From Candidatus Thorarchaeota archaeon (lineage in GTDB: Archaea; Asgardarchaeota; Thorarchaeia; Thorarchaeales; Thorarchaeaceae): 64,000 bases of DNA. The DNA is taken from positions 8,686 through 72,685 of the forward strand of contig JBHIAE010000010.1 in assembly GCA_046758445.1 (NCBI GenBank). The letters run 5' to 3'. Positions 2 to 9,774 of this stretch are shown piece after piece. Both the position numbers and the translations under genes were made by a program. The notes beneath the pieces were generated by a model that worked only from the letters and a program-made list of their open reading frames with translations, was not told where the DNA came from and searched no databases. Every line of letters begins with the position of its first letter. The first letter of the stretch is position 1.

Positions 2-802
2 GAAGCAGCAAAGCAGGCCATCAACGATGCGATTGTCGCACCAATGAAACATCCCGAGCTATTCATGGCGAAGGCTAGACAACCATGGAGGGGAATTCTC
101 TTCTATGGTCCAGCAGGCTGCGGAAAGACACTGATCGCGAAAGCAGTGGCTGCAGAGGTCAATGCCACATTCTTCAATGTTTCAGCAGGAAACATAGTCA
201 GCAAGTGGCTGGGAGAGTCGGAGAGACTTGTCATGACCCTATTTCAACTGGCCAGAAAGAGCCAGCCAGCGATAATATTCATGGATGAGCTTGACTCAAT
301 TGGGGTTTCCAGATCCGGCGACGACGTTGGCGGAGAGAGACGTCTAAAGACCCAACTATTGACAGAACTTCAGGGACTAGCTAGTGAGGCTCAGGATAGA
401 ATAACTGTGATTGGCGCGACCAACTTGCCGTGGGAGCTGGATTTCGCACTCAGATCTCGGTTTGAGAAGAAGATTCACGTTCCACTTCCTGACAAGACTG
501 CACGAAAGAACATCTTTCAGATTCACATGGAGGACATTGAGGTTTCATCGGAGATTGACTACGATGAGCTTGCGGACCTCAGTGAAGGATACAGCGGCCG
601 AGACATTAGCGTTGTGTGCAGAGAGGCAGCAATGGAGCCGATTAGAGACCTCCAACACTCAGGTCGAATGGATGAGGAAGAAGAGATTCTAGATATTCGT
701 CCTGTTTCCAGAGAGGACTTTCTCCAAGCGATTGAGAACATAAGACCGGCCACTTCTCCTGAGGATGTCAAGAGATACATCGACTGGGCGGAGGGTTCGT
801 AG
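2..802 (+). CDS. vps4: Vps4-like AAA+ ATPase (5'-partial; frame open to the window start)
   Basis: PWRGILFYGPAGCGKT (Walker A), SKWLGESERL pore loop, IIFMDELD (Walker B), GATNLPWELD...RSRF; adjacent to ESCRT-II genes. Confidence 0.88.
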   Translation, partial: EAAKQAINDAIVAPMKHPELFMAKARQPWRGILFYGPAGCGKTLIAKAVAAEVNATFFNVSAGNIVSKWLGESERLVMTLFQLARKSQPAIIFMDELDSIGVSRSGDDVGGERRLKTQLLTELQGLASEAQDRITVIGATNLPWELDFALRSRFEKKIHVPLPDKTARKNIFQIHMEDIEVSSEIDYDELADLSEGYSGRDISVVCREAAMEPIRDLQHSGRMDEEEEILDIRPVSREDFLQAIENIRPATSPEDVKRYIDWAEGS

Positions 803-805
803 GTT

Positions 806-1537
806 TTGGGAGTCAAGGAAAGGCGCAAAGAGAAGGAGAAGGCAGAAGCTGCGTCAAAGACTGCAGAAGAAGAAGTCGAACCTGTCAAGGAGATTCGACC
901 TCAGAGCATTGAAGAAACCCACAGACCTGTTGTTGAGATCGTAGAAGAGGCATCGGAGATTGTTCCGGAGGCTACCAATGAGGGGGTTGTCGAAGCAGTT
1001 GCAGATGACGTCACAACCTCACCTGTGGAAACCATTCTCCTCCCTTCGTGGGGCAATCAGAACGAAACTGAATGGATGTACAGCATACCCCCTAGGGAGG
1101 AAGACAAGAAGATGTGGGCGGAGGAGTGGGCAGACTTCGTTCTAGGGTGGGCTGAAGCAAGTGGAATTCACGTGCTCTCCGTCACTACATTCATCAAGGA
1201 GCCTCCTTTCAGCGATATCTCTGGGAAGGTAGATTCATTCCAACTGATTGGTGAAGTGCTGGTCGAGAAGAAGATTGCAGAGTGGCTTGACGAGGCGAGA
1301 AGACAGCTCCGAGTCTATTGGAGATTCCTCGAGGAATGGGCTGACATCATGTATCAATGGGCAATGAAGTCCGGAAAGCTAAGACTCGATGTGAAATCCA
1401 TTGTAATCCAAGAAGAGGAACAGGGTTTCGCGAATCTGCCCGAAAAGGACATCCACATAATCATGAGAATCATGGTTGAGAAGGGAATGGCGACCTGGGT
1501 CGACAAGACGAAGGGTGCCATAAAGGTCAAGGTCTAG
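806..1537 (+). CDS. vps25: ESCRT-II Vps25-like protein with acidic N-terminal extension
   Basis: W-x3-W-x6-W pattern (MWAEEWADFVLGW) and VYWRFLEEWADIMYQWA matching the Vps25 W-R-x-x-E-E-W-A motif; C-terminal GxA...KGAIKV; 3 bp downstream of vps4. Confidence 0.8.
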   Translation: MGVKERRKEKEKAEAASKTAEEEVEPVKEIRPQSIEETHRPVVEIVEEASEIVPEATNEGVVEAVADDVTTSPVETILLPSWGNQNETEWMYSIPPREEDKKMWAEEWADFVLGWAEASGIHVLSVTTFIKEPPFSDISGKVDSFQLIGEVLVEKKIAEWLDEARRQLRVYWRFLEEWADIMYQWAMKSGKLRLDVKSIVIQEEEQGFANLPEKDIHIIMRIMVEKGMATWVDKTKGAIKVKV

Positions 1538-1540
1538 AGC

Positions 1541-2299
1541 TTAACGGGCAGACCCAAAGGATTGGTCACTCTTATCCCTGGCCCTAAGGCCGGGAAAGTA
1601 ATAGCGGCCTCCAGTGGAGAAACGAATGTCAGCCACGGCCATTCCAGCATCGACGAGGCTCGCGAGGACTTGACGTGCATGGTCTTCTGACCATTTGAAC
1701 TGCATCATTACCTCCTCAACCGATACATGACCTTTTGAAGCTGCTAGGTTGACAACGTCAGCCTGGTCTCTTCTTAGCTCTAAGGGGCGAAGCTCAACTA
1801 CTTTCACACCGCCTCTAAGAGTACGAATCCCAGGGATAAGGCCATGTTCCGCCACTCGATTCACAGCCTCAATCACATCACTGTAACTCACGGCCTTGAG
1901 CTCAGGGAGACGTTTGACAACCTCAACGATCAGCTCTGCCAGCCCCATGAGACCTTTCGAAGCGTTTGCAGTGGCAACGTCAAGTATGGCGAGCCCAATG
2001 TAGTCATAGTACTCCTCTTGGGACATTCCGTCTGCTCTTGGATGAGTTTCAGACCTTTGAAGATTCAGCAGCTGAATAGCATCAGCAAATCGTTCTGTTA
2101 GCCTCTCCATCTCCATGAAAGAACTGATGTCAAGCCCAATCCGACTGAAGTCATCGATATTGTGTTTGACCTCTCTTGTAAGTGCTTCAGACTCTCTTTG
2201 ATATGACCTGATATCGACCACTCCCAAATCGAACATCTTCTTCAGTTGGTCCAGCGTGGCTATGGACGCGTAGAGTTCTGACTGAAGTCGCTCCTGCAT
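1541..2299 (-). CDS. EAP30 (Vps22/Vps36-like) ESCRT-II protein with Vps28-like N-terminal domain
   Basis: C-terminal part YYDYIGLAILDV..GLMGLAEL..VSYSDVIEAV..PLELRRDQADVVNLA..GHVSV..WSEDHARQVL..GMAVAD..YYFP is EAP30-type; N-terminal ELYASIATLDQLKKMF..Y resembles Vps28-N. Confidence 0.82.
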   Translation of the reverse strand: MQERLQSELYASIATLDQLKKMFDLGVVDIRSYQRESEALTREVKHNIDDFSRIGLDISSFMEMERLTERFADAIQLLNLQRSETHPRADGMSQEEYYDYIGLAILDVATANASKGLMGLAELIVEVVKRLPELKAVSYSDVIEAVNRVAEHGLIPGIRTLRGGVKVVELRPLELRRDQADVVNLAASKGHVSVEEVMMQFKWSEDHARQVLASLVDAGMAVADIRFSTGGRYYFPGLRARDKSDQSFGSAR

Positions 2300-2395
2300 A
2301 GAGGTCTACCTTCATCCAACTACAAGACCCAGACCGGGCTGTGAGATGAGATTGGGGGGATGCTACTATAAGAGAGAGTATTATTCGCTGACGCT

Positions 2396-3754
2396 CTAAG
2401 GAGTGATTCTATCTCTATCTCTAGGAAGTAGTGTTGCTTCTCTGATGTTTTCAATCCCAAGCATCTGCATTGTCAGCCGCTCCACGCCCAATCCGAGACC
2501 TCCATGGGGTGGTGCCCCGAATTTGAAGGGATCAAGGTAGAAGGCGAAATCATCTGGATTGAAACCCTTCGCTTTGAATCTCTCTATGAGGAGGTCATAG
2601 AGATGAATGCGCTGGCTGCCGGTTGTGATCTCCATGCCTTTGTAGGTAAGATCGAAACTCTCAGTCATGCCCTCATCTGTGAGACTAGGCATTGTATATG
2701 CAGGACGCAATTCCATAGGATAGTGCGTTATGAAGACCATATCAGTACCGTACTTCCTTGGAAAGATCTCTCCAAGGAGGCGCTCCCCCTCTGGATCGAT
2801 ATCTTCAGTGATTGAGATCTCCTTCCCTTCTTGGTTCAACAGATCGATAGCCGTTTCGAACTTGATTCTCTTGAATGGAACCTTGGGTATCTCCAGATCT
2901 ATCCCCAGAAGCTCAAGTTCTGCTGCTGATGCCTTTGCAGTTTCTTTGAATGAATGGTGTAGCATCTTCTCCTCCATCTTCATTACATCATCGACGTCAC
3001 TGATCCAGGCCATCTCATAGTCAAAAGATGTGTATTCGTTAATGTGGCGGCGTGTGTTATGCTTCTCAGCTCTAAACACCGGGGCAATCTCAAAGACTCG
3101 ACCAAAGCCCGCAAGCAACATCAATTGCTTGTAGAACTGTGGACTCTGTGCTAGGTACGCTTTCTTGTCAAAGTACTTTATCTCGAAGAGGTTGGCTCCA
3201 CCCTCAGTCGCCTCAGCAACTATCTTGGGTGTGTGAATCTCTACGAAGTCATTGGCTTCGAGAAACTCTCGGGCGAATCTCACAAGGGAGTGTTGGATGT
3301 GGAATATTGCATTGACCGTGGGCTTCCTTAGATCAAGTATTCTGTGATTTAGGCGAGTGTCGAGTTCGACGTCTACCTTACCTTCCACGACATCAATGGG
3401 TAGACGTTCCGCTCTATTGATAATACGAATCTCTTCAGGGATAACTTCTACACCTGATGCGACCTGTTTCGCAGATACTACTGTGCCTTTCACAGCAACA
3501 GCATATTCGGGCTTCAGCTGTCTCGCCACTTCGAAGACAGCCTCTGAAACCTTCTTCTGGGGAATGGTGATTTGAACTGTGCCGTGTTCATCTCGTAGAA
3601 TCAGGAACTTGATCTTGCCCTTGTCACGCAGAATGTGAACCCATCCCAGCAGTGCTACTTCAGTATCAATGGCGTCTGCTGTGATCGCGTCACTGAAGTG
3701 AGTGCGTCTTCCTTCGCCAATTGGTTCAACACCTGCTTCACTGTAGAAGTCCAT
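2396..3754 (-). CDS. aspS: Aspartyl-tRNA synthetase, archaeal type (probably non-discriminating)
   Basis: OB-fold GWVHILRD, YLAQSPQFYKQ, motif 2 FRAE, motif 3 GAPPHGGLGLGVER; His in WVH suggests ND type. Confidence 0.95.
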   Translation of the reverse strand: MDFYSEAGVEPIGEGRRTHFSDAITADAIDTEVALLGWVHILRDKGKIKFLILRDEHGTVQITIPQKKVSEAVFEVARQLKPEYAVAVKGTVVSAKQVASGVEVIPEEIRIINRAERLPIDVVEGKVDVELDTRLNHRILDLRKPTVNAIFHIQHSLVRFAREFLEANDFVEIHTPKIVAEATEGGANLFEIKYFDKKAYLAQSPQFYKQLMLLAGFGRVFEIAPVFRAEKHNTRRHINEYTSFDYEMAWISDVDDVMKMEEKMLHHSFKETAKASAAELELLGIDLEIPKVPFKRIKFETAIDLLNQEGKEISITEDIDPEGERLLGEIFPRKYGTDMVFITHYPMELRPAYTMPSLTDEGMTESFDLTYKGMEITTGSQRIHLYDLLIERFKAKGFNPDDFAFYLDPFKFGAPPHGGLGLGVERLTMQMLGIENIREATLLPRDRDRITP

Positions 3755-8895: not shown

Positions 8896-9774
8896 GTGAC
8901 CACAACGCGATATCCCACATATGAAGGGAGCAAGTCCTCAGAGCGCTCAGTAAGACTGGATCGCACTGAAGGGCACATTGTCATTGAGGGGAGAGCATAT
9001 CCCGCTAGAGAACTTGTAGAAGCGCTTGCGCAATCTGGATACACTGAACTGAAGGCAGTTGGTGACTCACTCATGCTTGGCAGGAAACGTATAACTCCCA
9101 TTTTCAAGTCTAGACAGGATCGAGCAATGGCCAGTGTCTGCCACGGAAGTCTGGCTTTCTGTTGTCCTCTATCGAAGAGATGTGCAGAGCGAGATCGTGC
9201 ACTGGAGATGTTGGGCCTAACTCCCGATGAATATGGTCGAATGAAGAATGATGCACACCTGAGGTTCGTCGAGTCCGCAAGAGGGTTGTCCACTGTGGAT
9301 GATTCTCCTACATATGACGAACGACGACACAGACTAGCAAACGAGCCCGCAGTAGACCGGGGTTATGGCTCTGACGACTATCGCAGGGACTTTGATTCAC
9401 TTGAACGCACTGTTCAGCCATATGGCCGACCATCTGAGAGAGTGACTGATCCATGGATGCGAGGTCGTGACACGTCGCATCCGCGGGACCATCCTTCCCT
9501 CTACACAGACAGTGACCAAGCAGACTCGTATGCGGACCTAAGCAATCTCTTCGTAGATGAACACAAGTCACAGGGTGGCTTTTCATCCGCACCAGCCTGT
9601 GATATTCGTACTGGTGAGAATGTTGAAGGCCTCGGTGCATTGTTTGCACAAGGCGAGCTAAGTCCATTTAGTTCGGAATCTGATGGGAGAGAGAGTAGGA
9701 CATTCTGTTTCTCCTGTGGTAGAACATTCAGGGCCGGGACAAAGGTATGTCCATGGTGTGGAGTGCCACAATAG
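8896..9774 (+). CDS. Protein with methanogenesis-marker-9-like Cys motif and C-terminal zinc ribbon
   Basis: CHGSLAFCCPLSKRCAERDRALEMLGLTPDEYGRMK; C-terminal CFSCG-x8-CPWCG. Confidence 0.6.
   Translation: MTTTRYPTYEGSKSSERSVRLDRTEGHIVIEGRAYPARELVEALAQSGYTELKAVGDSLMLGRKRITPIFKSRQDRAMASVCHGSLAFCCPLSKRCAERDRALEMLGLTPDEYGRMKNDAHLRFVESARGLSTVDDSPTYDERRHRLANEPAVDRGYGSDDYRRDFDSLERTVQPYGRPSERVTDPWMRGRDTSHPRDHPSLYTDSDQADSYADLSNLFVDEHKSQGGFSSAPACDIRTGENVEGLGALFAQGELSPFSSESDGRESRTFCFSCGRTFRAGTKVCPWCGVPQ

Follow-up and report, generated by a model that had tools for sequence, protein, structure and literature searches.

The 252-aa protein encoded at positions 1541-2299 on the minus strand of the window (the whole 64,000-nt stretch of DNA analysed here) consists of the N-terminal domain of the ESCRT-I subunit Vps28 joined to the tandem winged-helix core of the ESCRT-II subunit Vps22. 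The gene is probably best explained as a Thorarchaeota-type Vps22 in which the Vps28 N-terminal domain (Vps28-N) stands in for the canonical helical domain. That "probably" is meant for the explanation as a whole, which takes in the domain identities, their distribution and a mechanism and an origin; the domain identities themselves are observed, unlike the mechanism and the origin, which we infer. The fusion can be described just as correctly from the Vps22 side, as a replacement of its canonical N-terminal helical domain by Vps28-N. The fusion is already known, and the gene described here, another ortholog, confirms published biology.

Gene Locus and Protein Architecture

The fused gene is an intact ORF with an ATG start. 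The Vps28 N-terminal (steadiness-box-type) domain, delimited by hhalign, phmmer, AF2 and Foldseek, covers residues ~3-80 (2060..2293, minus strand) and is modelled as a helical hairpin (H2-24, H30-53), after which short helices run to residue 78. A flexible linker of ~13 residues (~81-93; 2021..2059, minus strand) follows, marked by pLDDT values below 50 at residues 82-88 of the full-length AF2 model and by differences in both sequence and length among the family members in an alignment of 24. The EAP30/Vps22 tandem winged-helix core, located by Pfam, profile search, Foldseek and DSSP, occupies residues ~94-236 (1592..2020, minus strand). The C-terminal tail, residues 237-252 plus the stop codon (1541..1591, minus strand), has a pLDDT of 34-37 and is variable and poorly conserved across the family alignment. 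The mean pLDDT of the full-length model is 77.8 and its pTM only 0.40, though both modules are confident; the low pTM fits two modules that would fold independently. Close homologs number about 137, are 245-275 aa long and, where the source is named, are mostly labelled Thorarchaeota. In the 24 aligned homologs, the N-terminal segment (consensus SELYASIATLDQLKKMYDLGAVD...) is one of the regions of highest conservation.

The gene is part of a cluster of ESCRT genes. The 3′ part of vps4 lies at 2..802 (plus strand; Pfam AAA, AAA_lid_3 and Vps4_C), and the complete gene, whose start lies 416 nt beyond the upstream edge of the window, encodes 405 aa with MIT, AAA and Vps4_C domains. The ESCRT-II subunit gene vps25 (806..1537, plus strand; Pfam ESCRT-II PF05871, E = 1.8e-14) and the fused gene are convergent, with 3 nt between their stop codons. 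ORF coordinates and Pfam thus bear out the original prediction that the gene converges on vps4-vps25. Farther upstream on the contig, the cluster also contains an ESCRT-III/Snf7 gene (C10:7487-8095, minus strand; Pfam) and, ~2.7 kb from the fused gene, a gene for a 538-aa Znr-CC-PH-SB protein (C10:5870-7486, plus strand) in which Pfam recognises zinc ribbons together with a GRAM/PH domain. An ORF of 75 aa that lies upstream of vps4 was considered separately; it looks spurious and remains at noise level in hhalign against the profiles of the Thor N-domain and of Vps28.

The Winged-Helix Core

The C-terminal module is an EAP30 domain. Pfam EAP30 (PF04157) matches residues 70-224 with E = 4.7e-14 and 53.1 bits, against a cutoff of 26.8. 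When the family profile was searched against the PDB, it matched human SNF8/Vps22 (2zme_A and 3cuq_A; E ~1e-19) as well as the yeast Vps22 chain 1u5t_A (E = 1.4e-4). Foldseek of the full-length model likewise gave SNF8 3cuq_A as the best PDB match (E = 6.7e-9), with Vps36 2zme_B at E = 2.8e-6, and DSSP of the AF2 model assigns two H-E-H-H-E-E winged-helix units to residues 94-234. The protein thereby has the tandem winged-helix core of EAP30/Vps22 proteins, and its gene neighbourhood provides the association with Vps25 and with ESCRT-III/Vps4 genes. The canonical N-terminal helical domain (EAP30 profile ~1-43) is missing, as the Pfam match begins at profile position 44, and an HMM of canonical N-termini gave no match to the Thor Vps22 in a scan of its own genome.

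Identity of the N-Terminal Domain

Evidence for Vps28-N from the single sequence is marginal yet consistent. Pfam VPS28 (PF03997) aligns residues 7-79 with profile positions 2-74, in register and below threshold, at E = 0.062 and 13.5 bits, under the gathering cutoff of 24.5. Of the 24 family members, 14 touch the VPS28 model, the best of them at E = 0.0026. When the PDB was searched with the family profile, the first matches that are not Vps22 were four chains of the yeast Vps28 core (2f6m_B, 2f66_B, 2p22_B and 2caz_B), aligned with query residues 6-62 at E ~0.1. An exhaustive phmmer search of 1.8 billion (1.8e9) representatives turned up a 202-aa protein, P0260, whose match (E = 5e-5) is confined to residues 6-80. 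This protein is a genuine stand-alone Vps28, scoring 55.2 bits with PF03997 over profile positions 2-176, and BLASTP aligns it with the Thor Vps22 N-domain without gaps at 38% identity.

Once profiles are used, the sequence similarity of the N-domain to Vps28 is far beyond chance. A word-based search for homologs of P0260 yielded only 5 proteins, and further Vps28 sequences for the alignment were taken from genome loci. With 25 family sequences as query and 12 Asgard Vps28 proteins as target, hhalign aligned residues 1-85 over 79 contiguous columns (4-82) with a probability of 99.3% (E = 2.8e-20); reversed-sequence controls gave 0.2-2.1%. The by-eye range of ~5-78 proposed for Vps28-N in the original prediction is essentially the range of 4-82 found by these tools.

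The predicted fold points the same way. An AF2 model of residues 1-92 has a pLDDT of 83.8 and a pTM of 0.70, and its best 12 PDB matches in Foldseek are ESCRT-I headpiece or core chains, with TMq values of 0.52-0.72 and most alignments spanning 81-85 columns; hairpins of the Vps23 type rank next, at ~52 columns. The yeast chains among the ESCRT-I matches are those named Vps28 in the family-profile search of the PDB. Chains U, V, W, X, Y and E of 6VME we take to be VPS28, from their length of ~100-105 residues; a phmmer search of P0260 against the PDB returned only the entry for the Vps28 C-terminal domain, 2j9w, and named no 6VME chains.

The similarity ends with the N-domain. The match to the VPS28 profile stops at position 74-79 of 188, so that the C-terminal four-helix bundle of Vps28 is missing, and a full-length Asgard Vps28 HMM aligns to the Thor Vps22 only at positions 12-92. 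Because the Vps28 C-terminal domain is missing and the remainder is EAP30, the Thor Vps22 as a whole is not a member of the Vps28 family.

It could be argued that the N-terminal ~85 residues are the native helical domain of Vps22/Vps36 and that their likeness to Vps28 is one that arises by chance between helical segments. The protein is indeed colinear with human SNF8 and of about the same length (query 96-239 against SNF8 95-240), the Pfam EAP30 match begins at residue 70 and so overlaps the end of the N-domain, and Hatano et al. modelled helical aa 1-81 in a Heimdall Vps22 and superposed it on Vps22/Vps36. The profiles and folds nevertheless argue strongly against this reading, which we hold to be very improbable. 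Compared with 27 canonical Vps22 N-termini, Asgard and eukaryote-like, the N-domain reaches an hhalign probability of 2.8% (E = 0.016), the level of the reversed controls, so that the native domain, named at the outset as a match that would overturn the Vps28 assignment, is not seen. Canonical Asgard Vps22 proteins match EAP30 from position 1-2 and the Thor family from 44, and no Vps22 or Vps36 chain is among the 50 N-domain fold matches listed. The canonical Vps22 N-termini themselves show no similarity to Vps28 (hhalign 0.4%). A SHOCT motif, the other match named as fatal to the assignment, was not found by Pfam, and neither SHOCT nor a generic coiled coil gave a Pfam match to the N-terminus at E up to 10. 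The joining of Vps28-N to an EAP30 double winged helix, as originally proposed, is supported by sequence, profile-profile and fold evidence.

Distribution among Asgard Archaea and Probable Origin of the Fusion

A total of 301 Asgard genomes were searched with the full-length family profile. The full-length fusion (query 1 to ~247) is present in 68 of the 77 genomes of the organism's own taxonomic family, and partial or split copies occur in 3 further ones (G002, G266 and G167). Only a weaker match, at E ~1e-19 to 1e-22, was found in 5 of the 77; these matches are taken to be an EAP30 paralog of 791 aa, since their E-values are close to the 3.3e-23 of the organism's own paralog against the winged-helix core profile. 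The one remaining family genome, which is 62% complete, gave no match. In the same order, the single genome of a sister family (G019) contains the fusion at query 4-240, and its N-terminus matches both the Thor N-domain HMM (E = 3e-29) and the Asgard Vps28-N HMM (E = 4e-21).

Outside these two families, most of the listed matches begin at query ~65-97. In each of eight non-Thor Vps22 proteins, drawn from eight families, the N-terminus is canonical (E = 1e-14 to 1e-31). Six non-Thor matches that start at query 19-41 were considered as possible carriers of a hidden Vps28-like N-terminus, and all six are canonical. Among the genomes sampled, the Vps28-N fusion therefore seems to characterise the Thor order and not all Asgard Vps22; a survey of this kind had been proposed with the original prediction, and it places the architecture in that order only.

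Gene order in the non-Thor genomes suggests how the fusion may have come about. In representatives of eight families (G024, G025, G020, G021, G022, G042, G190 and G254), a full vps28 lies upstream of a canonical vps22, with both genes on one strand. The pair abuts or overlaps in G024, G020, G042, G190 and G254, and the genes are separated by ~300 nt in G021 and ~450 nt in G022, where the upstream gene encodes a Vps23-Vps28 fusion. In G025, a separate gene for the Vps28 C-terminal domain sits between vps28 and vps22. As vps28 is found just upstream of vps22 in these eight non-Thor genomes, an in-frame gene fusion is suggested: an in-frame deletion across the C-terminal domain of Vps28 and the helical domain of Vps22 would yield precisely the Thor protein. 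Judged by gene order alone, adjacent co-directional vps28 and vps22 genes are the most likely source of the fusion.

The neighbourhoods outside the Thor order have a further feature, in that a coiled-coil-SB gene is often found upstream of vps28.

Relation to Published Proteins

Whether the fusion had been reported before, a point left open in the original prediction, can be answered in the affirmative. In Table S3 of Makarova et al. (2024; mBio, PMC10936438), residues 1-70 of the Thorarchaeota Vps22 KXH75178.1 are assigned by HHpred, at 99%, to PF03997, the VPS28 N-terminal domain/SB. The same authors ascribe the SB fusion to Asgard Vps22 generally, that is, to the whole of cog.002769 (Makarova et al. 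2024, PMC10936438). At the sequence level, this generalisation does not hold in our tests, because the N-termini of the non-Thor Vps22 proteins checked are canonical and bear no detectable similarity to Vps28. The protein described here, with its SB/Vps28-N domain and two winged helices in an ESCRT cluster, belongs among the SB-fused Asgard Vps22 of cog.002769.

Published Thorarchaeota Vps22 proteins (asCOG cog.002769, "Vps22#"), for example KXH75178.1 and ThorAB25_09030, have the same Vps28-N/SB domain and two winged helices. KXH75178.1, by its published annotation, is identical to the fused protein in domain make-up. The published neighbourhood likewise comprises an SB protein, ESCRT-III, Vps4, Vps25 and Vps22, the phylum-level lineage is the same, and nothing of substance sets the published orthologs apart from the protein here. 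The order of ThorAB25 genes 08990-09030 is that of the present locus, and ThorAB25_09030 served as "Vps22" in a yeast two-hybrid study in which Thor Vps22 self-interacts (Hatano et al. 2022, PMC9192718). The free-standing SB protein of Loki- and Thorarchaeota "may interact with Vps28" according to that paper, whose sequence list gives an SB protein for Thor only and includes no Thor Vps28 (Hatano et al. 2022, PMC9192718). Since that list has an SB protein and no Vps28 for Thor, the suggested interaction may in Thor be one with the fused Vps22.

A comparable joining of ESCRT-I modules in one Asgard polypeptide is the UEV-Vps23-Vps28 fusion of Heimdallarchaeota (Hatano et al. 2022). The Heimdall protein stays within ESCRT-I and keeps the whole of Vps28, whereas the Thor fusion crosses from ESCRT-I to ESCRT-II and has Vps28-N only. 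With eukaryotic Vps22/SNF8 (3CUQ, 2ZME and 1U5T), the Thor protein shares the winged-helix core, a similar length and an association with Vps25, whether genomic or functional; the eukaryotic protein has an N-terminal helical domain (EAP30 profile 1-43) where Thor Vps22 has Vps28-N. With eukaryotic and Asgard Vps28 (PF03997; 2F6M, 2CAZ, 2P22 and 6VME), it shares the fold of the N-terminal core over 81-85 aligned columns, and identity between Asgard Vps28-N and the Thor N-domain is 35-38%. Vps28 itself continues into a C-terminal four-helix bundle that bridges to ESCRT-II, and the Thor protein has the EAP30 core in that place.

Other ESCRT-I-Like Proteins in the Genome

The organism's own genome, which is 92.7% complete, encodes no other clear Vps28-N domain: among 27,191 ORFs, the Asgard Vps28-N HMM gave one significant match, the fused protein (E = 3e-14). 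A search of the genome with Pfam Vps23_core returned nothing credible. Contig C13 encodes a very divergent Vps28-like coiled-coil protein of 414 aa, which Pfam VPS28 matches over profile positions 56-184 at E = 0.0023; its relatives within the genus reach up to 25.6 bits over VPS28 profile positions 10-185, and single-sequence hhalign of the 414-aa protein against the Thor N-domain and Vps28 profiles gave nothing above noise. The 791-aa EAP30 paralog, on contig C56, has a canonical helical domain and a C-terminal winged-helix pair. In the original prediction, EAP30 was held to replace the Vps28 C-terminal domain, which stands. ESCRT-I-like parts nevertheless extend beyond the fusion, because the divergent 414-aa Vps28-like protein is kept alongside it.

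Candidate Partner and Proposed Mechanism

In eukaryotes, ESCRT-I and ESCRT-II are bridged non-covalently by the binding of the Vps28 C-terminal domain to Vps36. In solved ESCRT-I, Vps28-N packs on the steadiness-box hairpin of Vps23 rather than on itself. The candidate for such a partner in Thor is the 538-aa protein of the ESCRT cluster. Its layout resembles that of Vps23, with a coiled coil ahead of an SB at the C-terminus, and its C-terminal ~65 residues are strongly conserved among 120 Thor homologs. The C-terminal hairpin has weak matches to Vps23_core (best E = 2.6e-4) and to Mod_r, the Vps37 family (E = 0.18), and single-sequence hhalign of the protein against the Vps28 and Thor N-domain profiles gave nothing above noise. 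It matches the Znr_CC_PH_SB family published by Makarova et al. (2024, PMC10936438). The SB assignment draws on these weak Pfam matches together with the literature.

A complex between Vps22 residues 1-92 and the C-terminal 75 residues of the Znr-CC-PH-SB protein was predicted with an ipSAE of 0.80 (runs 0.79-0.81), the best of 3 controls reaching 0.00. Of 80 solved complexes, 58 attain the ipSAE mark used, as do 2 of 110 mismatched pairs; these figures are approximate, since the alignments supplied were our own. At least 100% of contacts agree between runs, and the partner pLDDT is at least 79. The modelled interface involves, on the Vps22 side, the invariant residues A11, A14 and T15 of helix 1 and, in the partner fragment, the invariant residues F45, I46, Y49, M53, R54 and Y57, which correspond to full-length residues 508-520. 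The score may reflect the likeness to, or memory of, solved Vps23-C:Vps28-N complexes (2F6M, 2CAZ and 6VME) and not binding by this particular copy. On balance, the model tips us slightly towards a pairing of the Vps22 N-domain with its Znr-CC-PH-SB neighbour.

In the mechanism that we propose, the winged-helix core would bind Vps25, encoded next door, and so recruit ESCRT-III and Vps4, while the Vps28-N module would dock in the manner of the headpiece on the C-terminal Vps23/Vps37-like SB hairpin of the Znr-CC-PH-SB protein. A zinc-ribbon/PH module that binds membrane or cargo would thereby be coupled directly to ESCRT-II, without the bridge between the Vps28 C-terminal domain and Vps36. We suggest, tentatively and as something short of an even chance, that the line dividing ESCRT-I from ESCRT-II is dissolved in Thor, through the in-frame vps28-vps22 fusion and a headpiece pairing with the Znr-CC-PH-SB protein as a ubiquitin-independent equivalent of Vps36. 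Thorarchaeota have been reported to be without ubiquitin (Hatano et al. 2022, PMC9192718). Of the hard-wired ESCRT-I/II supercomplex in the original prediction, the covalent fusion is borne out, and the supercomplex is for now what an in-silico complex model suggests.

The canonical helical domain, which helps eukaryotic Vps22 to pair with Vps36, is missing from the Thor protein, and its substitute might serve mainly as a self-association device that joins two copies of Vps22 and recruits no ESCRT-I-like partner. The self-interaction of Thorarchaeota Vps22 in yeast two-hybrid (Hatano et al. 2022, PMC9192718) would be explained in this way, and steadiness-box hairpins are oligomerisation modules by nature (Makarova et al. 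2024, PMC10936438). Against it, the complex model brings the SB of the neighbour up against the invariant face of helix 1, at the ipSAE given above and with the best control at 0.00, and the pairing in solved ESCRT-I is between Vps28-N and the Vps23 hairpin. We therefore regard a role chiefly in self-association as unlikely, while noting that a homodimer is the main alternative to the heteromer and that the two are compatible and not exclusive. Less probable still is that the N-domain pairs not with the Znr-CC-PH-SB protein but with the 414-aa Vps28-like protein or the 791-aa EAP30 paralog. Both occur in the organism's own genome and in its relatives, and the layout of the 791-aa protein is Vps36-like, so that it could serve as the second arm in a complex resembling ESCRT-II; neither gene, however, lies within the ESCRT cluster, and neither product shows a Vps23-type hairpin with the profiles used.

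Implications

The assembly of the multi-complex ESCRT pathway of eukaryotes out of archaeal components is a standing question. The covalent union of an ESCRT-I assembly domain with an ESCRT-II core shows that modules have been shuffled in Asgard archaea, and the fused protein offers a simple system for reconstitution. What the present work adds to the published fusion is modest: its restriction to the Thor order, a plausible origin by gene fusion, the lack of any other clear Vps28-N domain in the same genome and, from modelling, a specific candidate partner and interface. If the proposed pairing with the Znr-CC-PH-SB protein is true, a zinc finger/PH module combined with winged helices would constitute a minimal ESCRT-I/II machine of natural origin, amenable to reconstitution.

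Other ESCRT-related proteins in the genome

The Thorarchaeota genome that encodes the fused Vps22, a steadiness-box (SB, Vps28 N-terminal) domain joined to an EAP30 winged-helix core, harbors a second EAP30 protein outside the window. This protein of 791 aa (C56:3154-5526, + strand; positions 755-3127 of locus L040) resembles Vps36 in layout. In its C-terminal part, a helical domain of the canonical Vps22/36 type (residues 576-641) is followed by a winged-helix pair (residues 644-790), and the approximately 575 aa that precede the helical domain include a CarboxypepD_reg-like domain. An exhaustive phmmer search with the fused Vps22 against 1.8 billion protein representatives recovered numerous relatives of ~760-805 aa.

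Two further proteins of this genome, also outside the window, give weak or marginal matches to Vps28 profiles. The first is a coiled-coil-rich protein of 414 aa on contig C13 (locus L001, 835-2079, - strand) with a weak match to Pfam VPS28 (E 0.0023, profile positions 56-184); its relatives from the same genus (414-441 aa) score up to 25.6 bits over profile positions 10-185. The Asgard Vps28 HMM did not detect the C13 protein, which is Vps28-like but very divergent and carries a long extension at its C-terminus. The second is an ORF of 124 aa (C17:34816-35190, + strand; positions 1017-1391 of locus L042) immediately downstream of a small-GTPase-like gene. Its C-terminal helix-'G.L'-helix segment matches the Vps28-N HMM marginally (E 0.009), and the ORF may represent a free-standing hairpin, either steadiness-box-like or SHOCT-like.

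Among relatives, the G012 assembly (84% complete, 5% contamination) encodes the fused Vps22 twice, both times at full length (C199:10601-11344 and C138:1627-2367), which may reflect duplication or mixed strains. In G025, a non-Thorarchaeota Asgard genome with a canonical Vps22, a full vps28 is separated from vps22 by a 104-aa gene that encodes only the Vps28 C-terminal domain (locus L004, 2080-2391, + strand), consistent with the remark of Makarova et al. (PMC10936438) that the domain is encoded separately in some Asgard genomes. The same authors note that Asgard Vps25 can have additional subdomains at the N-terminus; the Vps25 beside the fused Vps22 (window 806-1537, + strand) carries an acidic, low-complexity N-terminal extension of ~90 residues before its ESCRT-II domain, which Pfam matches from residue 91.

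In their main text, Hatano et al. (2022; PMC9192718) refer to an SB-Vps28 interaction for Thorarchaeota and also to a Lokiarchaeota SB protein, whereas the sequences in their Supplementary Data 1 include an SB protein for Thorarchaeota only and no Thorarchaeota Vps28. The partner in the reported Thorarchaeota interaction may be the fused Vps22.
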